Positions 5,080 through 60,906 of a stretch of 64,000 nucleotides of DNA are shown here, piece by piece. The DNA is from Oscillospiraceae bacterium (GTDB taxonomy: Bacteria > Bacillota > Clostridia > Oscillospirales > SIG627), in the NCBI GenBank assembly GCA_015063985.1, contig SVTC01000007.1:35477-99476 (forward strand), read 5' to 3'. Under the pieces are notes generated by a model. That model was not told where the DNA came from. It ran no database searches and worked only from the letters and a program-made list of their open reading frames with translations. Position numbers and translations under genes: made by a program. The number at the start of each line of letters is the position of its first letter. The stretch's first letter is position 1.

Positions 5080-5964
5080 TCATATAAGTGTTTTATTCAC
5101 AAACTCCACACTGTATGCGGTAATTTTTTCCTTTCTCAAGGCATCGCAACAGCTTTTTGCGCCAAGCTCATCGAAAAATACACCGAACACAGATGGGCCC
5201 GAGCCACTCATAACAGAGCATTTTGCGCCCATTGAAAGCATTTTTTCCTTCAAGATCGCAATCGCAGGCCTTTTGGGGATGCTTACCTGCTCCATAACGT
5301 TAAAAACGCTTTTACTCATCAGCTCCGGATCCCCATTCCTCAACGCCTCCACGCACTGAGAGGTCAAGGGGTGGCTCTCGTAGCTTTCAAGGGAATCGTA
5401 AAGACTGTACATCTGAGGTGTGGACAAGCCTGCAGTGTTTTTTGCTATTACCGCATAGGCGCAAAGCCTCGACTGAAAGCTCTCCATCACCTCGCCCCTG
5501 CCTCGGCATACGGCGGTACCGCCCACCGTGGTAAAGGCGACGTCCGAGCCTACCTTTGCCGATATTTTGCAAAGCTCGGCCTTGTCTCCCTTGGAGAAAT
5601 ATTTTGCCAGAAGCCTTATCACCGCACTTCCGTCGGCGCTTCCTCCTCCCAAGCCCGCACAAACGGGTATGTTCTTTGAAAGGTGGATATCAAAGCCTCT
5701 GTCCTCTATTCCAAAATAATCAAAATAGGCATTGGCTGCCTTTATGCAGATATTATCCCCATTCTTCGGAACAGAATTGCTTTCGGAGATCATCCTCAGC
5801 TCTCCGAAGGCGTTTTTTTCAATACCGACTCTGTCATACAAGCCCGTAAGCTGCATAAGGGATTCTATCTCGTGAAATCCGTCGTCCCTTTTTGAAAGGA
5901 TATCCAGAGTAAGGTTTATTTTTGCATATGCCTTTTCACTGAGCATCGTCGTCTTCTCCGTCAT
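5080..5964 (-). CDS. ispE: 4-diphosphocytidyl-2-C-methyl-D-erythritol kinase
   Basis: AKINLTLDI N-terminus and the GHMP kinase motif PVCAGLGGGSADGSA. The start may be the internal Met at 5946. Confidence 0.9.
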   Translation of the reverse strand: MTEKTTMLSEKAYAKINLTLDILSKRDDGFHEIESLMQLTGLYDRVGIEKNAFGELRMISESNSVPKNGDNICIKAANAYFDYFGIEDRGFDIHLSKNIPVCAGLGGGSADGSAVIRLLAKYFSKGDKAELCKISAKVGSDVAFTTVGGTAVCRGRGEVMESFQSRLCAYAVIAKNTAGLSTPQMYSLYDSLESYESHPLTSQCVEALRNGDPELMSKSVFNVMEQVSIPKRPAIAILKEKMLSMGAKCSVMSGSGPSVFGVFFDELGAKSCCDALRKEKITAYSVEFVNKTLI

Positions 5965-6697
5965 CCACCAGAGATCTTGGTCTTTTCTTCTCCTTGGGCT
6001 TCTCCTCAGCCTCAGGCTCCTTCTTTTCTCCGATGCGCTTTTCAGTGCCGTTCTTCAGCCTTAAGATATTGTCCTTATGCATTACGATAATAAACGCAGC
6101 TATTGCCACCGCAAACAAGGCGGTAGTGAAAAAGCTGTTGGCAGAGGTAAATTTAATGCTGATCAAAGGATACATAGCCGCGGCAGTGATGGATGCCACC
6201 GAAACGATCTTTGTGACCCAAAGCATAAGTCCCCACACCAAGGCAAGAAGCAAAAATACCACAGGATCAATTATAAGCACGGTTACCGCGGCAACCAGCA
6301 CACCCTTTCCGCCCTTGAAATTATAATAAAGTGGGAAAACGTGTCCGAATATGCAAAAGAAGCCTCCGAGATGAGCGCCGCCAAAGGCTCTTCCCACTAT
6401 CAAGGAGCTGATAAGCACCGCTATCAAAGCCTTCAAAACGTCTCCCAGCAGGGTCAGTATGCCCGCTTTTTTGCCAAAAACTCTGAACATATTGGTCATT
6501 CCCGCATTTTTTGAGCCGTAGCTTCTTATGTCCTTCTTATAAAGACCGCGGGAAACTATGATCGCGGTATTAACGCTTCCCAAAAGATAGCTCACTATAG
6601 AGGAAATGGTATATCCCACCAAAAGCATTGCTATAAAGCTTTCGCCTGCGCCGGCCTTGTATATCAAGCCTTCGTTAATCAGCTTAAGAAAAAGCAT
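5936..6697 (-). CDS. plsY: glycerol-3-phosphate acyltransferase PlsY with a charged C-terminal tail
   Basis: GSKNAGMTN and FKGGKGV motifs with multiple TM helices. The unusual Lys/Glu/Asp-rich C-terminus overlaps the ispE start. Confidence 0.9.
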   Translation of the reverse strand: MLFLKLINEGLIYKAGAGESFIAMLLVGYTISSIVSYLLGSVNTAIIVSRGLYKKDIRSYGSKNAGMTNMFRVFGKKAGILTLLGDVLKALIAVLISSLIVGRAFGGAHLGGFFCIFGHVFPLYYNFKGGKGVLVAAVTVLIIDPVVFLLLALVWGLMLWVTKIVSVASITAAAMYPLISIKFTSANSFFTTALFAVAIAAFIIVMHKDNILRLKNGTEKRIGEKKEPEAEEKPKEKKRPRSLVDDGEDDDAQ

Positions 6698-11591: not shown

Positions 11592-12471
11592 CGTTCTTTC
11601 CTCCTTTTTTCTTTGTGAGAGTATACAGCTTTTTCACAGGATTTTCCTTCTTTTGGGCATCCACCTCATAAAGAAGCTTAAGCTGCTCGGCAAGACTGTG
11701 CTTATCAAAATTTCTGGTAAGCTTGCCGTCGCGGGCAACGGAGATCATTCCCGTTTCCTCGCTGACCACTATAACAAAGGCATCGCTGACCTCACTCAGA
11801 CCTATTGCGGCTCTGTGGCGGGTTCCCAGCTCCTTTATTATCTCGTGGTTGTGGCTCAGCGGCAGAAAGCAGCCGCAGGCATACACTCTCGAGTCGCGTA
11901 TTATCATTGCACCGTCGTGCAAGGGAGCCTTGTTAAAGAAGATATTGCCTATAAGATATCTGGATACGTCGGCATTTACCACAACTCCGCTCTTTATCTC
12001 ATCGCCCAGCTTGGTAATGCCCTCAATGGCGATAAGTGCGCCCGTCCTGCTCTCGCTGAGATTGGCGCAGGCCTCGCAGATCTCCTCTATAAGCGCGGTC
12101 TTTTCGGTGTTTTCCTTGTTCTCACTGAGCTTGGTAAGCCCCTTTATTGAGCTTCCGCCCATTTTTTCAAGCATACTTCTCAGCTCGGGCTGGAAGATAA
12201 CTATCAAAGCCACCATTCCGACCTGCACCACGTTTTCCAAAATAAATCCCAAAGAGCGCATAGATAGAACGTTGCTTATCATTACCGCCAACAGCAAGAA
12301 TATTACGCCGATAGCAAGCCTTCCCGCTCTTCTTTCGCGGATAAACACCAAAACGTAATAAAGCAGTATGCTCACAAGGGCTATATCCACAAAATCCACA
12401 AGCCCCATGGAGGAAAACTGATCGCAAACATATTCCCAAAGGTTTTTCAAATAGTCCAAGATCTGTCCCAT
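11581..12471 (-). CDS. cdaA: membrane-bound diadenylate cyclase (c-di-AMP synthase)
   Basis: Three N-terminal TM helices and DAC-domain motifs LHDGAMII and GTRHRAA. Confidence 0.9.
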   Translation of the reverse strand: MGQILDYLKNLWEYVCDQFSSMGLVDFVDIALVSILLYYVLVFIRERRAGRLAIGVIFLLLAVMISNVLSMRSLGFILENVVQVGMVALIVIFQPELRSMLEKMGGSSIKGLTKLSENKENTEKTALIEEICEACANLSESRTGALIAIEGITKLGDEIKSGVVVNADVSRYLIGNIFFNKAPLHDGAMIIRDSRVYACGCFLPLSHNHEIIKELGTRHRAAIGLSEVSDAFVIVVSEETGMISVARDGKLTRNFDKHSLAEQLKLLYEVDAQKKENPVKKLYTLTKKKGGKNGER

Positions 12472-34029: not shown

Positions 34030-34106
34030 TTTACATAACATTGTTTACATTAGTATTATGTAAATCATTAAATTTACATAAGTTATAATATCTGTATTTA
34101 TGTAAA
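34030..34106. repeat. cluster of TTTACATAA / TTATGTAAA boxes
   Basis: TTTACATAA at 34030-38 and 34073-81, TTTACAT at 34044-50, and TTATGTAAA at 34056-64 and 34098-106. Confidence 0.8.
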
Positions 34107-47764: not shown

Positions 47765-49840
47765 ATGAACATTCCGCTTCCCTCAATAGGCGCCAAAGCC
47801 ATTAATTATCCTCACTTTCCGTCCCGTCAGCAAGAATTCATCTTCCGCTCCCATGAATTTGCCACTCCCTTGCAGATGGCAAAGCTTTTAAAAACCGACG
47901 AAAAGACCGTCCTTGAAGCAATGGATGCAATGGGCATAAAGCCCGGAGAATACTGCGCTCAAATGATGGCAAAAAGCTACATTACCTTGATCAAGCAGCT
48001 CTGGCACGTTTTAAACTACGATCAGCTCCTTGAATTTTTGGGAATGACCTCCGACGAGCTCGCCATCACCTTAAGAGAAGAGGATTTTCTTGATGTAAAG
48101 CTCAAGGCAAAGCCCGACTGCGATCCCCTTTTCTGGGAGGAGCTCAGCCCCGAACAGATCAAAGCCACAAAGCTTATCAAAGAAGCAATGGCAGACGTTT
48201 CCCTCTCGGGAAAGGCCCCCTTTGATTTTGAATACAACGTCACTCCTCTGCAATTCTCAGGCAAGGCAAGCTTCGATCTTCGCATCCTCTACTTTTTCTC
48301 GGGGCTTTTCCAGCACGCCTTCGACGTTGACAGTGAAGAATACCTGCCCGATTCTATGCTCCAAGCCTACCAAAGCATAGGGATAAACGGTCTCTGGACC
48401 CAAGGCATACTCTATCAGCTCTGCCCCTTCCCCTTTGAGCCAAAGCTATCCGAGGGCTGGGAAAAGCGAATGGAAAACCTTAAAAAGCTCGTTGGCAGAA
48501 TGAAAAAATACGGCATCAAGCTCTATCTCTACCTCAACGAGCCCCGTTCTATGCCCGCCGCCTTCTACGAAAAATATCCCCATCTCAGAGGACACGAGGC
48601 ACAAAAGGAAAAGATCTGCCTTTGCACGTCCACTCCCGACGTACAAAAATACCTCACTGACAGCGTGGAGCTTATCTGCCGCGAGGTACCCGACATCGGC
48701 GGCTTCTTCTCGATAACCCGCTCCGAAAATCCTTCCAACTGCTACTCCCACTCCAATCCCGAGACCTGCACCTGTCCCCGTTGCTCTAAGCGCCCCTTAC
48801 CCGAGGTAATAGGAGAATACTTCTCCCTTCTTCGCCGCGGCGCAGACAGAGTCAGCTCCGGTATAAAGGTAATGGCTTGGAGCTGGGGTTGGAACACCCG
48901 CAATCTTGACATTATCCGCGCTCTGCCTCAAAACGTGATCCTACTCAGCCAAAGCGAGCTTGACATCCCCTACACCATCGGCGGAGTCAGCGGCAACGTT
49001 TTAGACTATTCCATAAGCATTCTCGGCCCCGGCGAAAGAGCTCTCAAGGAATGGGAGGTGGCCAAGGAGTGCGGTCTGGAGTTGGGAGCAAAGGTGCAAA
49101 TAAACACCTCCTGGGAGTGCTCCACTGTTCCCGCCATCCCCGTCTACGATCTCATCGAGGAGCATATAAAGCGTCTTCGCGATCTCAACATCAAAAACCT
49201 TCTTCTCAGCTGGACTCTCGGCGGCTTCCCATCAAGAAACGTAATGCGAATAGCTCAGTATTTCCACGAAGGCTTGGATAATCCCGAAGCCATTTCCTTG
49301 ACCCCCGCAGAGAAAAAGGCATCCGCCCTCTTTTGCGAGGCGTTTAAAAACTTCCCCTTCAGCTGCAGCGTTCTCTATTCAGGACCCCAGAACGGCGGAC
49401 CTTCCAATCTTCTCTACGCCGAGCCCTCAGGCTACAAGGCAACGATGACCTGCTTTGCCTACGATGATCTCAACGGCTGGAGAAGCCGTTATCCGGTGCC
49501 CGTTTTCTACGATCAGTTCTCCAAGATCTGCGACATATGGAAGCAGGGGCTTGAGCTTATCCAAAACGACAGCGGCGAAATGGCAACTATGGCAAAAGCA
49601 GCTTATCTCGTCTTCTCCTCCTGCCGCGATCAGATAGCCTTCTACGTCGCCCGCGAGAAAAACGACACCGCCTCAATGGCCGAGCTGGCAAAAAAAGAAG
49701 AGCAGACCGCAAGAGCTATGCTTAAGCTTATGAACGAGAACGCTTCCATCGGCTTTGAAGCGGCAAATCAATACTACTATTCCCGCTCCGTCTTAGCCGA
49801 AAAGATCATAAACTGCCGCTACATCTCTTCCCTTTTTTAA
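47765..49840 (+). CDS. hypothetical 691-aa protein (likely carbohydrate-active; family not recognised)
   Basis: Long uninterrupted ORF with an AGGAG RBS and a CTCPRC motif. It sits among sugar-utilisation genes. Confidence 0.6.
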   Translation: MNIPLPSIGAKAINYPHFPSRQQEFIFRSHEFATPLQMAKLLKTDEKTVLEAMDAMGIKPGEYCAQMMAKSYITLIKQLWHVLNYDQLLEFLGMTSDELAITLREEDFLDVKLKAKPDCDPLFWEELSPEQIKATKLIKEAMADVSLSGKAPFDFEYNVTPLQFSGKASFDLRILYFFSGLFQHAFDVDSEEYLPDSMLQAYQSIGINGLWTQGILYQLCPFPFEPKLSEGWEKRMENLKKLVGRMKKYGIKLYLYLNEPRSMPAAFYEKYPHLRGHEAQKEKICLCTSTPDVQKYLTDSVELICREVPDIGGFFSITRSENPSNCYSHSNPETCTCPRCSKRPLPEVIGEYFSLLRRGADRVSSGIKVMAWSWGWNTRNLDIIRALPQNVILLSQSELDIPYTIGGVSGNVLDYSISILGPGERALKEWEVAKECGLELGAKVQINTSWECSTVPAIPVYDLIEEHIKRLRDLNIKNLLLSWTLGGFPSRNVMRIAQYFHEGLDNPEAISLTPAEKKASALFCEAFKNFPFSCSVLYSGPQNGGPSNLLYAEPSGYKATMTCFAYDDLNGWRSRYPVPVFYDQFSKICDIWKQGLELIQNDSGEMATMAKAAYLVFSSCRDQIAFYVAREKNDTASMAELAKKEEQTARAMLKLMNENASIGFEAANQYYYSRSVLAEKIINCRYISSLF

Positions 49841-50018
49841 CACACCTTTTTGAAAAAAGGTGTGCCAAAAACTTTTATTGTCGATAAAGTCAGCATAAAC
49901 AAAGCAATCGATGGTTTTCTCGGCCCGAAACCATACTTTCCTTTTTGAAAAAAGGTGTGCCAAATACCTTTATTGTCGATAAAGTCAGTGCACACGGTAC
50001 TCTATTCATTTATTTACA
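49841..50018 (+). repeat. stop-codon-abutting hairpin plus two tandem units of about 95 bp (locus D), variant hairpin sequence
   Basis: CACACC T5 G A6 GGTGTG (49841-49864) starts right after TAA (49838-40). The conserved core is CCAAAAACTTTTATTGTCGATAAAGTCAG, and the array ends near TTTACA at 50013-18. Confidence 0.8.
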
Positions 50019-50025
50019 GCTTTTA

Positions 50026-50064
50026 CAAGATCAGCAGAAAATCCTTCTGCTGATCTTGCATTTT
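50026..50064 (+). terminator. intrinsic terminator downstream of locus D
   Basis: A 14-bp stem, CAAGATCAGCAGAA / TTCTGCTGATCTTG, with a 5-nt loop, followed by CATTTT. Confidence 0.6.
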
Positions 50065-50265
50065 AGCGAGACAGACAACAATAATAATCGTTTTTCGAAG
50101 AGAAATTATTCCGCAGATCACAGGCCATCAAAAAACATAACCAAAAAAATCAACATTTTTCACTTTTTTCACTCTCGCCACCCCCTTGCATATCAAAAAA
50201 CAAGAGAGTTTTTTGTGCAACTTTCACAAAAATTCAATATTTTTTTCTACAGTGTAAAAAAACAC

Positions 50266-50294
50266 TTGACTTTTTTGTTGAAATTTGCTAAAAT
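50266..50294 (+). promoter_or_regulatory. strong sigma-A type promoter with an A/T-rich upstream region
   Basis: TTGACT (50266-71), a 17-nt spacer, then TAAAAT (50289-94). Confidence 0.65.
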
Positions 50295-50300
50295 ATATAC

Positions 50301-50514
50301 GTAAACAACAAGAGCGGTTATTTCTTCGGAAATGCCGCCATTAAATATAGCTTACTTCACATCGCTCAGTTTTTTCTCCTCTCTCTTTCTTTTCTGAGCG
50401 AATTTGTTTTTTGGGGTCCCCTCCCCAAACATTGATTACTTGAGCCTTGGAACACAGGCATTATCGTACATAGATCCCCTTTTTAAAAAACGCTTCCTTC
50501 GGGAAGCGTTTTTG
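50301..50514 (+). ncRNA. candidate standalone small RNA of about 214 nt (family unknown)
   Basis: It is bounded by the promoter above and by the terminator CGCTTCC ttcg GGAAGCG + TTTTT (50491-50513). Internal hairpins are at 50314-38 (UUCG loop), 50363-50400 (24-nt all-pyrimidine loop) and 50410-29. There is no downstream same-strand gene. Confidence 0.5.
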
Positions 50515-50524
50515 CGTTAAAAAG

Positions 50525-50566: not shown

Positions 50567-52651
50567 CTACTTTTTGACAACGACCACGCCATAGGGCGGC
50601 AAAACAAAGCTATTGCTTTCACAAAGGGAAATAAAACGGTCCTCGAAGGGCTCATAAACGCTTTCCGGCGTAAATCCAAGCGTAATACTCTTTTCCATTG
50701 AGGTGCTGTTGGCAAGATAAAGACTTGAGGCGGTGTGCATACTAACAACTCCCCTTGCGTCCCCATCGGTAACAGACGAAAATTCCGCCTGCAGCTCCCG
50801 CGCACCTTCTATGGATATAACCCCTTTCGGCAATGGCTTGGCACCATTAACGGCGTATATCCTCCATCCCTTTTTCAAAAGCTCGGGTATCATTTCAAAA
50901 AGCTCGGACTCCACAGCGTCCGCATATATCACAAGACTGCGCGGCTCTGCATCCGCCAAGGAAGGAGTATCTATAAAGCCAAAGGAGATCTGCCTGTCCA
51001 TCAAGGCAAACATACATTCCTCCATTTGGCTTTGTATTGCCAAAGCCCGTTGACTTGAGGCATCCTCCACCAAAGGATCCAAGGAAAGCTTCTTTTTCAG
51101 GTCCTTGCGATCCAGAGGATAGGGCAAGCTATATTCATTGAGTATACTGTCGTAAACAGTTGCCACGTCCACGGGATTTACGGTATTTGCCATCACACCT
51201 TCAATGGGATAATGCAAAAAAACATCATAAGGCAAGGCCTCCTCGGTGCTTTTCAGCAAGCGGGAAAACGCCTTAAGTGTGCTTTCTCCGGCAAAGGTGG
51301 GGGCGCAAATGGGATCCACACCATCCATATAATAGGAGTGAAATACACTCACACCCAAGAAATGCTGCATGGCAAGGGAGGTAAAGAGCTGACGGGCAGA
51401 GACCTTGATGCCGTATTTATTTTGGAAATGGCAGGATACCTCATCCATCACGTCTCCCTCTCTGTGCAAACGGGAAACAGACGAAACCAAAAGAGGAGTA
51501 AATGCCTTTTTCCAAATACGCTCCGGCAAGGAGTCCAGCATATCCATTCCCGGGACGTGCATAGTCTTCAATATGGAAAAGAAGCTGCCTTGATATCGGG
51601 GATGATCCGTTATCCTCTCCTCCAGCAAAATATGCCCGGATGATAAGACGCCGTAGCTTTCACAGCATTTGGCAATAGGCAAAAAGAAATTCCTTCTTGC
51701 AAGCTCCGTAAGAAGCATATAAAACCTTTTGCGAAGCTTTTCGGCTCGCTCTCCCTCGGAGAAAAACAAAAAGGGAAGCTGATCCATAAGGGAGTCGCCG
51801 TAGGCATCCTCAAACCTATCCTCCAATCCGTCACTCCAGTTTACCATAGCATAAAGGGGAAGCTTGGGATCGGGAATGTGGTTTACCACGCGGGGTATTT
51901 TCTCTAAATTAAAATAAACCGCCATATAGGAGGGCTCATCCATAAAAAACGCCTCCACGGTGCCGTCCTTAATGTAAGGCAACAGACGGCGGCAATATGG
52001 CTCGTAGGTATTTTTCACAAAGGCTTCTCCCGCCTTGGGATGAGACAAATCGATATATCTCCTTTGCGAGGCAGCATTATGCTGGCAATGAGTGCCCTCA
52101 AAGGCAGGCTTTGTGAAAAACGCAAGACAGAGCAGCTTCTTGTCGCCCTCGTTAACAAAATGATATCCATTCTTGCCGTAATCGGGGCGCAGAGGCTCTG
52201 CACAAAGATCACTTTGTGTAACCTTGTCATCGCCAAAGTAATATGCAAATGCCCCCATAGGCTGAATATGCCCGTAAGGCAAGGGTATATCCCCACTCTC
52301 TCCCGGCATAAGGACCTTATGGACAGCAACGAGAGCCTTTGCCTCAAGAGAAGGATCGTCACTGAGGGTCTTAACGCCTGCGGCTCCGCTGGGATACCAC
52401 TTTTCATCGTATATCCAAAGCCTCAATCCGTGCTTCTTGCAAAGACGCGCCTTCTCCTCCACCAAACGCCAATTGGCTTCGTTTTCTATATAACCATCGG
52501 TGAAATCAACGTTCAGCACAACACCGTCGTACCCCGCCTCTTTTATATTGACCAAATGGGTTTCTGACACCGCCACCTTGGTCTCAAAGGGGGCATCGTC
52601 GGCATAGGGAAAGCCGTGCACCAGCTTAAAAATACCTTTTTTCAGTTTCAT
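50567..52651 (-). CDS. hypothetical protein of about 694 aa (glycoside-hydrolase-like context)
   Basis: Long ORF. I prefer the ATG at 52651 over the TTG at 52690. I recognise no named motif. Confidence 0.55.
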   Translation of the reverse strand: MKLKKGIFKLVHGFPYADDAPFETKVAVSETHLVNIKEAGYDGVVLNVDFTDGYIENEANWRLVEEKARLCKKHGLRLWIYDEKWYPSGAAGVKTLSDDPSLEAKALVAVHKVLMPGESGDIPLPYGHIQPMGAFAYYFGDDKVTQSDLCAEPLRPDYGKNGYHFVNEGDKKLLCLAFFTKPAFEGTHCQHNAASQRRYIDLSHPKAGEAFVKNTYEPYCRRLLPYIKDGTVEAFFMDEPSYMAVYFNLEKIPRVVNHIPDPKLPLYAMVNWSDGLEDRFEDAYGDSLMDQLPFLFFSEGERAEKLRKRFYMLLTELARRNFFLPIAKCCESYGVLSSGHILLEERITDHPRYQGSFFSILKTMHVPGMDMLDSLPERIWKKAFTPLLVSSVSRLHREGDVMDEVSCHFQNKYGIKVSARQLFTSLAMQHFLGVSVFHSYYMDGVDPICAPTFAGESTLKAFSRLLKSTEEALPYDVFLHYPIEGVMANTVNPVDVATVYDSILNEYSLPYPLDRKDLKKKLSLDPLVEDASSQRALAIQSQMEECMFALMDRQISFGFIDTPSLADAEPRSLVIYADAVESELFEMIPELLKKGWRIYAVNGAKPLPKGVISIEGARELQAEFSSVTDGDARGVVSMHTASSLYLANSTSMEKSITLGFTPESVYEPFEDRFISLCESNSFVLPPYGVVVVKK

Positions 52652-52682
52652 TTTATGTTCTCTCGCTAATAGATTATCAAGC

Positions 52683-53591
52683 TCAGTCAAGCTGTTTTTT
52701 CATAAACTCTCTCACAAAAGCAAGATTTTCCTTTTGCTTTTTCTTGTTTTCGGGATAAGCCCTTGCCAAAGAGAGGAAATAATCCTTATGGGGAGCTTCA
52801 TCGGGATCGTCTCTGTATGCGCAGATCGCCGCCATCCTTTCCTCGTCGGTCTTTGTAAAATCATCGTTTAAAAGAAAGTGCTCCGTCGCTACCGCATCTC
52901 TCAGAGAGGAAACAGCCCTGCGCCAAGGATCCAGCTCGGGGCTGATAGCTCTGTCACAAAGCTCCAAGCCCTGGAACTGAAGAAAGCACTTTGCCATATA
53001 AAAATGGCCTTCCTTGGTGGGATGAACTCTGTCGGCTCCGTAAAGCACCTCTTCGCTTGCACTGAGAAGCCTTGTAAGGTAAGAATGGTAATCGCAAATA
53101 GGATAGGAGTTTTCCTTTGCAAACTGCTTAAGATATTCACTGTAGCCAAGCATCAGAGCAGAACAGCCGCGAAGAGGCTCTACACTGCTTTCAATATACT
53201 CGGCATAGGGCGCCGGTGTACAAAGGATAAGCTCTGCACCGATATCCCCGATCCGTTTTACAAAGATATCAAGATCCTTCTTATATTGGCAAAACGCCTC
53301 CTCCAACGCATCGTATCTGTCCGGGCTTCCGGAATTAAGAAGTGTTCTTTTGGAATCGTTTATACCTATCATTAAAACCGCGTGGGTGGGCTCCCAGGGA
53401 AGGATATCCTCATCAAACACACTAAGAGCGGTCCCAAGCCTTCCGCCGGCAATCCCGCAGTTATAAAACTCCACTCCCGAATCGGGGAAATTTTTTCGAT
53501 AGTAGTCTACTATATGAGAAACAAAGTGATTGGTGTGGGTGATGCTGTCGCCCACAAAGCATACTCTCGATCCGTCGCTAAATCTTCCCAT
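52683..53591 (-). CDS. SGNH/GDSL-family hydrolase
   Basis: FVGDSITH block I and GINDS block III. The start at 53591 has GGAGGA 8 nt upstream. Confidence 0.7.
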   Translation of the reverse strand: MGRFSDGSRVCFVGDSITHTNHFVSHIVDYYRKNFPDSGVEFYNCGIAGGRLGTALSVFDEDILPWEPTHAVLMIGINDSKRTLLNSGSPDRYDALEEAFCQYKKDLDIFVKRIGDIGAELILCTPAPYAEYIESSVEPLRGCSALMLGYSEYLKQFAKENSYPICDYHSYLTRLLSASEEVLYGADRVHPTKEGHFYMAKCFLQFQGLELCDRAISPELDPWRRAVSSLRDAVATEHFLLNDDFTKTDEERMAAICAYRDDPDEAPHKDYFLSLARAYPENKKKQKENLAFVREFMKKQLD

Positions 53592-55743: not shown

Positions 55744-55778
55744 TTTACATAATTTGCCGCATTATAATATTATGTAAA
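55744..55778. repeat. TTTACATAA-N17-TTATGTAAA inverted repeat in a convergent intergenic region
   Basis: TTTACATAA at 55744-52 and TTATGTAAA at 55770-78. Confidence 0.8.
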
Positions 55779-59564: not shown

Positions 59565-60260
59565 ATGTACAACTCAAAGCTCAAAGCCCTCACCTTCAGC
59601 TTTGATGACGGCGTCACTCAGGATCAACGTCTTATCAAGCTATTGGACAAATATCACCTGCGCTCCACCTTCAACATAAATTCCGCAAGGCTGGATCAGG
59701 CCAAGATCCTCCTCGTAGGCGACGTGACGGTCAGCCACTGCAAGCCCCGTCCCTGCGAGATCAAGGCGATCTACCAAAACCACGAGGTGGCAGGCCACAC
59801 CCTCAGCCACCCCTGTCTGACCACCCGCAGTGACGACGAAATAGTCCGCGAGGTGGAGCAGGACCGTCTTGCTCTCTCCCAACTCTGCCAATACGAGGTG
59901 GTAGGCTTTGCCTATCCCGGAGGCTCCCAATACGTGGACGACAGAGTCATAAGCGCCGTAAGGACCCGCACCGGTGTTAAATACGCACGCAACGCCTGCA
60001 CCTCCGGCAGCTTCGATCCGCCCACCGATCTTTTCAACGTGATCCCCACCGCCTCCTTTCTTGACGGCAATATTTTGGAGCTTGCAAAAGAGTTTATCGC
60101 CATCTCTCCCCATTCCCCCAAGCTATTCTTCATCTACGGACACGCCTACGAGCCCGACGGCTACTCCGACGGCTGGGAAAGAGTGGAAAAACTCTTCTCT
60201 CTCATCTCGCACAAGGATGACGTCTTCTACGGCACCAACAAAGAATGCCTACTTTTTTGA
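59565..60260 (+). CDS. polysaccharide deacetylase (CE4 / NodB-homology domain)
   Basis: The LTFSFDDG and GHTLSHP motifs. The last 13 nt, including the TGA, lie inside the repeat hairpin at 60248-60271. Confidence 0.8.
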   Translation: MYNSKLKALTFSFDDGVTQDQRLIKLLDKYHLRSTFNINSARLDQAKILLVGDVTVSHCKPRPCEIKAIYQNHEVAGHTLSHPCLTTRSDDEIVREVEQDRLALSQLCQYEVVGFAYPGGSQYVDDRVISAVRTRTGVKYARNACTSGSFDPPTDLFNVIPTASFLDGNILELAKEFIAISPHSPKLFFIYGHAYEPDGYSDGWERVEKLFSLISHKDDVFYGTNKECLLF

Positions 60261-60506
60261 AAAAAAGTAGGCAAAAAACTTTTATTGTCGATAGACTCAG
60301 CACGAACACAGTGCTCGATGCTTTGCTTTTCGGGAACAACCCTTTTTAAAAGCAGGCAAAAAGCTTTTATTGTCGATGGAGTCGGCACGAACACAGTTCT
60401 CGATGCTTTGCTTTTCGGGAACAACCCTTTTTAAAAACAGGCAAAAAACTTTTATTGTCGATAGAGTCGGCACGAACACAGTGCTCAATGCTTTAACTTT
60501 ACATAA
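60248..60506 (+). repeat. hairpin plus three 85-bp tandem units ending in TTTACATAA (locus B)
   Basis: CCTAC T6 G A7 GTAGG is at 60248-60271. GGCAAAAA recurs at 60270, 60355 and 60440, giving an 85-nt period. TTTACATAA is at 60498-60506. Confidence 0.85.
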
Positions 60507-60545
60507 TTCGCATTTACAAATGTTATGTAGATCAAACAGAGCTAA

Positions 60546-60906
60546 AAAAGGAAGACCGACAAGAGGCACACTTCCTTACGGAGTGTGCCTCAATTTTCTT
60601 TTTATATAAAATTTGACACTTTCTGTTTGAAAGTGTCATAGTGGGTTACATACTTTGAAATATTACCTATCTCAAAGATAAAAATAATAAGTGATATTGT
60701 GAGACAGGTCTCACAGTGATATTTTTGATAAATCAAAAGTGATATTAAAACCTTGCGGTTTTAGTGATATTTTATTCGCCCCTAAACTCGCAAAGCGAAT
60801 AACACTCGGCTATAGCCGAATATAACTGCGAAGCAATACAACTCGCCTTTGGCGAATAAAACTGAGGCACACTTCCTTACGGAGTGTGCCTCAAGGTCTT
60901 CCTTTT
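60546..60906 (+). repeat. hairpin-ladder element, copy B (TIR-bounded)
   Basis: AAAAGGAAGACC (60546-57) pairs with GGTCTTCCTTTT (60895-906). An identical 31-nt hairpin unit occurs at 60563-93 and 60864-94. GTGATAT occurs 4 times and then ATAnnAC 4 times, interleaved with perfect hairpins. Confidence 0.85.

Follow-up and report, generated by a model that had tools for sequence, protein, structure and literature searches.

A hairpin-headed repeat at gene ends of an Oscillospiraceae bacterium: a probable REP-like extragenic element

The 64,000-nucleotide stretch of DNA analysed here (referred to as the window) comes from a metagenome-assembled genome (MAG) of an Oscillospiraceae bacterium (assembly GCA_015063985.1, contig SVTC01000007.1, positions 35,477 to 99,476 of the forward strand). 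At one site in the window, called locus D, the stop codon of a gene for a 691-aa protein is directly followed by a short perfect hairpin, which heads a tandem repeat that recurs behind unrelated genes. With a probability of roughly 0.55, locus D is an extragenic repeat of the REP/BIME/REPIN kind (REP, repetitive extragenic palindromic) that is defined by its hairpin, is located in a 3′ untranslated region (UTR), and is neither a terminator nor a coding sequence. On this reading the element works like a REP; it is not filed as a member of the REP family because a constant GTAG/CGTC tag is absent. It would be a known kind of element in a structurally different family, and what is unexpected is the breadth across phages of its 40-nt signature, which consists of the hairpin and the first ~16 nt of the core behind it. 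Most hairpin repeats known so far from positions near stop codons belong to Enterobacteria and Pseudomonas; the present one would add a different family from an uncultured gut Firmicute.

The repeat at locus D

The coordinates of the features are collected in Table 1. The head of locus D, CACACCTTTTTGAAAAAAGGTGTG, begins at the base after the TAA of the 691-aa gene and is adjoined by the conserved core CCAAAAACTTTTATTGTCGATAAAGTCAG, base for base as an earlier note on this DNA had described the stop codon, the hairpin, and the core. As RNA, the head is predicted to fold into a 10-bp stem with a UGAA loop (−11.3 kcal/mol); shuffled versions of the sequence have a mean of −3.3 kcal/mol, and 0/200 are as stable as the native one. 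A second unit (D2) is offset by 95 nt from the first (D1) and is hence out of frame. Its left arm is degraded, so that only CCTTTTTGAAAAAAGG of the palindrome pairs, again in agreement with the earlier note. Read in the frame of the gene, the locus gives SSLF*HTFLKKGVPKTFIVDKVSINKAIDGFLGPKPYFPF* and closes at a TGA.

Judged by its homologues, the TAA can be taken as the native stop of the 691-aa gene, because many of them (53-58% identity) end at the same position, which lies 7 residues past a conserved NC. Positions 49801-50320 are identical in nine independent metagenome contigs, and locus D is therefore no assembly artefact. The GC-rich, terminator-like hairpin that is predicted behind the array is the probable 3′ end of the transcript; a consensus terminator scan did not flag it because its U-tract is short.

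Six arrays between convergent genes

The DNA of this organism that was covered amounts to ~104 kb. In the window, the 19-nt core is matched 6 times versus 0.02 times expected, and an nhmmer profile made from the units detects 10 of them, grouped into four arrays (A to D). Two further arrays (E and F) lie in the 10 kb to the left of the window (L027), which brings the totals for the organism to six arrays, found in ~84 kb of the MAG, and eight perfect heads. Spacers between convergent genes hold 6/6 arrays, and E and F face each other in the spacer between mntP and lon as an inverted pair ~760 nt apart. That the same module stands behind unrelated genes had already been noticed, and the list now comprises genes for a Gfo/Idh/MocA oxidoreductase, an iron-dependent alcohol dehydrogenase (Fe-ADH), a polysaccharide deacetylase, the 691-aa protein, and, just outside the window, MntP.

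Each array is built from a head, a fixed core, one to three units of 85-95 nt, and usually a second hairpin (TTTACATAA-N14-25-TTATGTAAA), which closes arrays A, C, E, and F. The head is a perfect hairpin of 10-12 bp, whose arms of 5-7 nt are complementary but variable and enclose an invariant T5-6-G-A6-7 centre. The core follows the consensus (C)CA5-6CTTT(T/C)A(T/A)TGTCG. Apart from two internal heads in array E, the left arm, and with it the full hairpin, is confined to the first unit of an array. The tail hairpin (TACATAA-N16-TTATGTA) also occurs on its own at 34032-34062, 34075-34104, and 55746-55776 and appears to be an independent dispersed hairpin motif.

The 24-nt heads of arrays A, B, and C are identical. 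All three had been described as CCTAC...GTAGG, which holds for A (directly behind TAA) and B (directly behind TGA), whereas the palindrome of C is 2 nt longer on each side (TGCCTAC...GTAGGCA). Because unit A1 is nearly identical to unit B2, multi-unit blocks appear, from this resemblance, to have been copied between loci. Unit number differs at locus C, where contig L008 carries two units and the window three. Contig L025 breaks inside a head, as repeats do in assemblies. In practical terms, such arrays break metagenome assemblies and seed spurious calls of open reading frames (ORFs).

Table 1. Positions of the repeat arrays, their parts, and adjoining features (window coordinates; position 1 is the first letter of the window)
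Feature	Position	Strand	Description
Upstream 691-aa gene	47765..49840	+	native TAA at 49838-40; no Pfam family
Head D	49841..49864	+	perfect palindrome CACACC-TTTTT-G-AAAAAA-GGTGTG; begins +1 after the stop
Conserved core	49865..49893	+	adjoins head D
Unit D1	49841..49935	+	95 nt
Unit D2	49936..50023	+	left arm degraded; in-frame TGA in its loop
Terminator-like hairpin	50026..50064	+	CAAGATCAGCAGAA-AATCC-TTCTGCTGATCTTG, then CAUUUU; from folding; GC-rich
Array D	49841-50023	+	2 units, period 95; upstream 691-aa gene, TAA
Array A	34734-34549	-	2 units, period 94; CCTAC..GTAGG head +1 after TAA (34737-35); 345-aa Gfo/Idh/MocA gene
Tail hairpin of array A	34521-50		
Array B	37085-36806	-	3 units, period 93; CCTAC..GTAGG head +1 after TGA; 452-aa Fe-ADH gene
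Array C	60246-60510	+	3 units, period 85; head TGCCTAC..GTAGGCA; polysaccharide deacetylase gene
Tail hairpin of array C	60500-29		
Terminator after array C	60563-93		
Array E	left of window (L027)		+1 after the mntP TAA; new arm pair CCTACC/GGTAGG
Internal perfect palindromes of array E			ATTACC/GGTAAT and CCCTC/GAGGG
Array F	left of window (L027)		perfect head CTTAC/GTAAG, 86 nt from the lon stop

Relatives in phage contigs

The core in its MAG-specific form gave four chance-like single matches, each covering at most ~36 nt of the profile, in 185,579 GTDB species genomes and 0 matches in metagenome and viral collections. A relaxed pattern, made of the head centre and the beginning of the core, had a solo unit among its matches, on an AT-rich metagenome contig that is unrelated (L036), and also matched an element in L037, a phage-like contig with 66% GC. 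In the latter, a 264-aa ORF ends ...EAVLF* at the TGA of the hairpin loop, as at locus C. In this second scan of the metagenomes, L036 was the one true relative, and one other match was due to chance. The more general pattern TTTTTGAAAAAAN{4,9}AAAAACTTTT, which places no constraint on the arms, was searched in IMG/VR and matches at least 120 viral contigs with GC contents of 26-72%. Some of its matches that lack the arms (L052, L122) have the look of real promoters and were set aside, as they are not this element. The similarity between viral elements and the MAG units stops at about profile position 40 (two weak exceptions reach ~65), and only head and core are common to the MAG and the phages.

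In GC-rich Caudoviricetes contigs the elements are arranged as inverted doublets of 110-135 nt, some up to 166 nt, with the build RAAGNAAGNN-head-CA6CT4G-(GC-rich centre)-CA4GT6G-head-NNCTTNCTTY. Such a doublet is predicted to fold into a single hairpin of ~55 bp (−61 kcal/mol, z = −6), and its ~45-nt terminal inverted repeats include the RAAGNAAGNN flanks. The element forms an AT-rich insert in phage genomes of 56-72% GC and occurs in both orientations relative to genes. GenBank phages gave no DNA match to an element-rich contig, the Acetobacter phage phiAO1 (the best terminase relative of L037) is without heads, and a literature search with sequence strings returned nothing relevant to the 40-nt signature. 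That the signature stays nearly the same in more than 100 phage contigs, which differ greatly in base composition, points to either a miniature element that travels widely or a signal for conserved machinery.

Covariation of the hairpin arms

Seven arm variants are found in the MAG (CCTAC, TGCCTAC, CACACC, CCTACC, ATTACC, CCCTC, and CTTAC), and 8/8 full heads are perfectly Watson-Crick paired. In three pairs, both partners are exchanged when the A/B/C type is compared with the D type, which supports the earlier claim that the arms change together; the further arm variants nearby are perfectly paired as well. When arm covariation was tabulated over the 92 distinct viral heads among the matches listed, which had been collected with a pattern blind to the arms, strong covariation was seen. 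The covariation score is 0.452 versus 0.140 ± 0.018 for shuffled arms; 0/500 shuffles reach the observed value, and slid controls stay at or below 0.225. Each of the four inner arm pairs is paired in 68-79% of these heads, at least three of the four are Watson-Crick pairs in 64/92 heads versus ~5% by chance, and all four Watson-Crick pair types are represented. Uncompensated mismatches do occur, such as CCTAC/GTAAG in L142, and 16 mismatches were counted among 64 heads.

The constraint acts on the pairing of the arms and not on a peptide. For this hairpin constraint, the wider family provides far stronger support than locus D alone could. Compensatory changes are also frequent in the hairpins of REPINs (PMC3116915).

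Position relative to stop codons

The module had been described as stop-abutting, which is correct for arrays A, B, D, and E, whose heads start at +1 (4/6). At locus C the stop is the TGA in the hairpin loop (1/6), and array F is 86 nt away from a stop (1/6), so that 5/6 MAG arrays lie at or in a stop when the distances are tabulated. The gene at locus C ends ...KECLLF* at the loop TGA (60258-60) and enters the module in a different frame, and the interval between array F and the lon stop contains a degenerate head and a GC-rich palindrome. Judging from the coordinates, it would be vanishingly improbable for uniform placement in spacers of 370-850 nt to bring five arrays within ~1 nt of a stop.

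In the phages the contact is looser. Among the matches listed, an ORF of at least 90 codons ends within −60 to +25 nt of the head in 61/82 cases versus 8-13/82 at shifted controls. Since GC-rich DNA has long spurious open frames, codon-position GC was used as a check; where it indicates a clear sense gene upstream, the stop precedes the head by 5-14 nt in 13/17 GC-rich cases. Besides locus C and L037, about 11 viral cases among the matches listed have an ORF that ends in the loop TGA. Strict stop abutment is a feature of this lineage and not of the wider family.

Two diverged gut phages (L061 and L142) keep a TAA directly followed by head and core between connector-like and head-closure-like genes. 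Head and core are identical at 36/37 nt between the two, the flanking genes at 70-80%, and the rest of the spacer at ~57%. In another phage contig (L113), which shares its goat sample of origin with one of the MAG contigs, the element lies antisense at 5416-5444 and 12307-12335, and the heads touch the Shine-Dalgarno sequences of two genes.

Coding potential and known families

A 178-aa query that joins both open frames of array B had no match in 5.8 billion proteins; it is the 93-nt period of this array that keeps both of its strands open. Taken together, periods of 85, 94, and 95 nt (none a multiple of three), the different frame at locus C, and the lack of a homologue mean that the module is non-coding, and the idea of a coding repeat was rejected. 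According to the folds, arrays B, C, and D each have a strong hairpin with a U-rich tail behind them, and a comparable one was found after A by sequence inspection. With such separate terminator-like hairpins downstream, the arrays lie in 3′ UTRs and the head is not the obvious terminator.

Rfam 15 gave no match in the window at the gathering threshold, none at E ≤ 5 over the arrays, and none for the motifs in 15 viral loci. A consensus promoter scan was silent over arrays A, B, and D, and by eye the core fits a −35/−10 pair poorly. Type III toxin-antitoxin RNA repeats were considered and rejected, with units of 85-95 nt here versus ~34-36 nt there, convergent downstream genes, and no toxin gene. 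CRISPR and integron attC were likewise rejected on anatomy (unit length, absent partner genes), as was recoding of the SECIS/PYLIS type, the stops being both TAA and TGA.

Interpretation and alternatives

If locus D is a REP-like repeat, the element would spread, or would have spread once, as DNA; it would be non-autonomous, and its hairpin would be read in single-stranded form. It would survive solely at the extreme ends of genes, and where it clips an ORF, the head would supply the stop, either through the loop TGA or through a TAG in the right arm of the A-C type. Transcribed within the 3′ UTR, the head would form a stem-loop. At +1 it would be wholly melted by the terminating ribosome and would then re-form behind it, as the last barrier that retains the stop codon on a message trimmed from its 3′ end. 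REP hairpins shield upstream mRNA from 3′ exonucleases. The likeliest effect would be expected at the RNA level, as a block to 3′-to-5′ exonucleases at the end of the ORF and/or as hindered termination when the head is less than ~15 nt from the stop. By analogy, stop adjacency may have the same function here as for stop-proximal REPs. In E. coli, REPs lower translation only if their distance to the stop is below 16 nt, where they stall ribosomes just before termination (summarised in PMC12306157). Stalling by the present heads is probably mild. The placement of the stop at +1 or in the loop offers a clean test system for the encounter of a 3′ hairpin with terminating ribosomes and exonucleases.

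Several observations weigh against a REP-like repeat. With −9 to −14 kcal/mol, the heads are far weaker than GC-rich REPs. The counts of G·U and A·C mismatches show no strand asymmetry, so that RNA and DNA hairpins are indistinguishable by this measure, and the antisense orientation in L113 speaks against a purely sense-RNA role. Tolerance of insertions alone predicts a looser placement than the exact +1 seen at four independent loci. The classical REP tag (GTAG/CGTC beside the palindrome) is not constant: GTAG is found only inside the arms of A-C, while D (GGTGTG), E (GGTAAT, GAGGG), and the majority of phage heads do not have it, and the constant flank is CA5-6CTTT instead. The larger ORFs between 12.5 and 37 kb of the window, the genes for the 691-aa and 707-aa proteins, and those called on matching contigs show no transposase or recombinase; the genes between distant head pairs in phage contigs (capsid, baseplate, terminase, and methyltransferase) do not include a transposase either. 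Target-site duplications and empty sites were not seen. Among homologues, the closest contig (98% identity) stops within the head, and the next homologues of the 691-aa protein, which are without the element, are only 58% identical. In addition, only ~104 kb of the organism is covered. The ORFs that were scanned or called, in the window as well as in its flanks, include no RAYT (TnpA_REP, Y1 HUH); RAYTs are single-copy genes.

A broader proposal, which we regard as doubtful, is that head and core constitute a pan-phylum, phage-carried gene-end module with a U5-6-G-A6-7 apex, free arms, and a CA5-6CUUU flank, which is positioned by the stop codon or acts through it. Such a module would either be inserted by a single-strand enzyme that is coupled to gene ends or be read by conserved termination or RNA-decay machinery. 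If true, it would represent a new class of stop-anchored element, common to Firmicutes chromosomes and phages of 26-72% GC.

It is also possible, though we lean against it, that we are dealing with a miniature mobile element of a purely selfish nature (MITE, REPIN, or PATE-like), whose hairpin is recognised by a single-strand enzyme (e.g., HUH/Y1) that places the element by gene ends, and whose RNA effect is a by-product. Identical heads behind unrelated genes would be expected of such an element, as would an AT-rich insert in GC-rich phages, inverted doublets with ~45-nt terminal inverted repeats, both orientations relative to phage genes, and ORF ends that are replaced by head sequence. However, the transposase, the target-site duplication, and the empty site that would go with it were not found, and the head in L061 and L142 is kept at the same TAA better than the flanking genes, which resembles purifying selection or strict site specificity. 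Measured against a MITE, the phage doublets have the inverted repeats, no target-site duplication was seen, no insertion sequence lies between distant heads, and the MAG arrays are without a matching right-hand repeat. The paired changes themselves allow another origin. The earlier note had taken them as a sign of selection on the hairpin, and the kept pairing together with a peptide that has no homologue agrees with this; selection is, however, not the sole conceivable source, as templated fold-back copying of a quasi-palindrome could write the left arm from the right arm of the first unit. The 8/8 perfect heads of the MAG, the restriction of the left arm to first units (bar the two internal heads of E), and its variable length, with two extra bases (TG/CA) copied at locus C, are what this mechanism would produce. 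It is nevertheless unlikely, given that mismatched heads exist (L142 and the others counted above) and that diverse arms keep their pairing across unrelated genomes, which is the classical signature of structural selection.

That the head serves as an intrinsic terminator or attenuator of the upstream gene, a role the earlier note had raised, is quite unlikely. A stable hairpin directly 3′ of an ORF invites the idea, the head of locus A scores as terminator-like in a consensus scan, though on the opposite strand, and the heads of the phage doublets read outward into T-rich tracts, with a centre that resembles a bidirectional terminator. An intrinsic terminator, however, has a GC-rich stem and a U-tract directly behind it, whereas 60% of this stem is A-U and CCAAAAAC comes next, and in the window CAAAAAC stands behind the head in place of a U-run. 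Better terminator-like hairpins lie downstream of every array (by inspection for A), including the separate GC-rich one with CAUUUU at locus D. Least of all do we expect the module to be a C-terminal extension that is reached by hairpin-stimulated stop read-through or recoding, which we consider highly improbable. Hairpins directly 3′ of stops are known as recoding signals (SECIS, PYLIS), and the frame stays open for 35-91 codons past the stop in loci A, B, and D. Against an extension stand the use of both TAA and TGA, the unit periods of 85, 94, and 95 nt, the lack of a third-position substitution bias (by eye, in the unit alignment), a peptide without homologue, and the different frame in which the locus C gene enters the module.

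Comparison with known repeats

With the REP/BIME/REPIN repeats, the element has in common that its short palindromes are set by pairing and not by sequence, with frequent compensatory changes; that it is extragenic, multi-copy, and located at gene 3′ ends and between convergent genes; and that inverted doublets (here in phage contigs) give one long hairpin. Many REPs also lie within 15 nt of a stop and affect translation and mRNA stability (PMC3116915, PMC12306157). The stem of the present element, in contrast, is AU-rich with a T-run/G/A-run apex instead of GC-rich, there is no constant GTAG/CGTC tag and no RAYT among the ORFs scanned or called, and the CA5-6CTTT flank is fixed. Furthermore, the MAG version consists of a head plus direct tandem units of 85-95 nt and not of alternating REPs, and the hosts are a Firmicute and phages rather than Proteobacteria.

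Mycobacterial MIRUs, reportedly described by Supply et al. in 1997, are said to be tandem intergenic units of ~50-100 nt with variable copy number, whose ends overlap or touch the upstream stop. Tandem intergenic arrangement, variable number, and stop contact are thus shared. MIRUs, however, lie between co-transcribed genes and carry small translation-coupling ORFs, whereas the arrays here lie in convergent spacers, are out of frame, and are capped by a hairpin. The BOX element of Streptococcus pneumoniae has a head-(unit)n-tail structure with a variable middle module, is found near gene 3′ ends, and has stable predicted RNA folds. It resembles the arrays in its modular build, its siting near gene 3′ ends, its stable predicted folds, and the varying number of its middle module, yet there is no sequence similarity, and BOX is without a stop-anchored perfect palindrome.

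Intrinsic bidirectional terminators likewise place a hairpin beside A- and T-tracts after a gene, and the centre of the phage doublet reads A6-hairpin-T6. In the window, by contrast, the T- and A-runs are inside the stem, no U-tract follows, and a separate terminator-like hairpin lies downstream. The attC sites of integrons are imperfect palindromes that start at or in the stop of the preceding ORF and are recognised as folded single strands. Here, however, neither an integrase nor a cassette array is present, the units are direct repeats, and the upstream genes are ordinary chromosomal ones (Lon, MntP, and a deacetylase next to uvrB).

Neighbouring genes and further repeats

The two proteins encoded convergently around array D, of 691 aa (47765-49840) and 707 aa (50567-52690), are both without a Pfam family. 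MAGs of Clostridia, Oscillospiraceae, and Lachnospiraceae encode more than 1,200 homologues of the 691-aa protein, which are ~690 aa long and all unnamed. The protein represents a large, uncharacterised family, and its gene is set among glycoside-hydrolase genes. On most metagenome contigs a 119-aa ORF (49945..50304) is called, whose start lies inside unit D2; it has no Pfam match, and the repeat has probably given rise to a spurious call here. The + strand carries, at 50266-50294, a strong promoter-like site (TTGACT-17-TAAAAT, TG upstream), and ~200 nt 3′ of it, at about 50490-50515, lies a hairpin (AAACGCTTCCTTCGGGAAGCGTTT) without Rfam match. Taken together, promoter-like site and hairpin hint that a small transcript may be made in the interval between array D and the 707-aa gene, which is convergent.

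A second repeat family is formed by GC-rich palindromes (ATGGGGCGCTGCCCCAT), which stand in tandem inside array E and occur at 5900-6020 and 6565-6580 of L027, ~3-4 kb to the left of the window. A hairpin of the GGGGC-NNN-GCCCC type, followed after 6-8 nt by a T5-G-A6 head, recurs in low-GC viral contigs (L088, L059), and the same combination of hairpin and head with a different GC-rich stem is seen in L049, L063, and L144.

Downstream of array C, a terminator-like hairpin (GAGGCACACTTCCTTACGGAGTGTGCCTC) is present as a 31-nt perfect direct repeat at 60563-60593 and 60864-60894. The copies are separated by a 270-nt AT-rich stretch that holds four copies of AGTGATATT. Past the second copy, the contigs of other samples split into three neighbourhoods, namely GH28, an AMP-binding enzyme, and transketolase. 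The GAGGCACACTTCCTTACGGAGTGTGCCTC region is a recombination hotspot, an assembly hotspot, or another repeat element.

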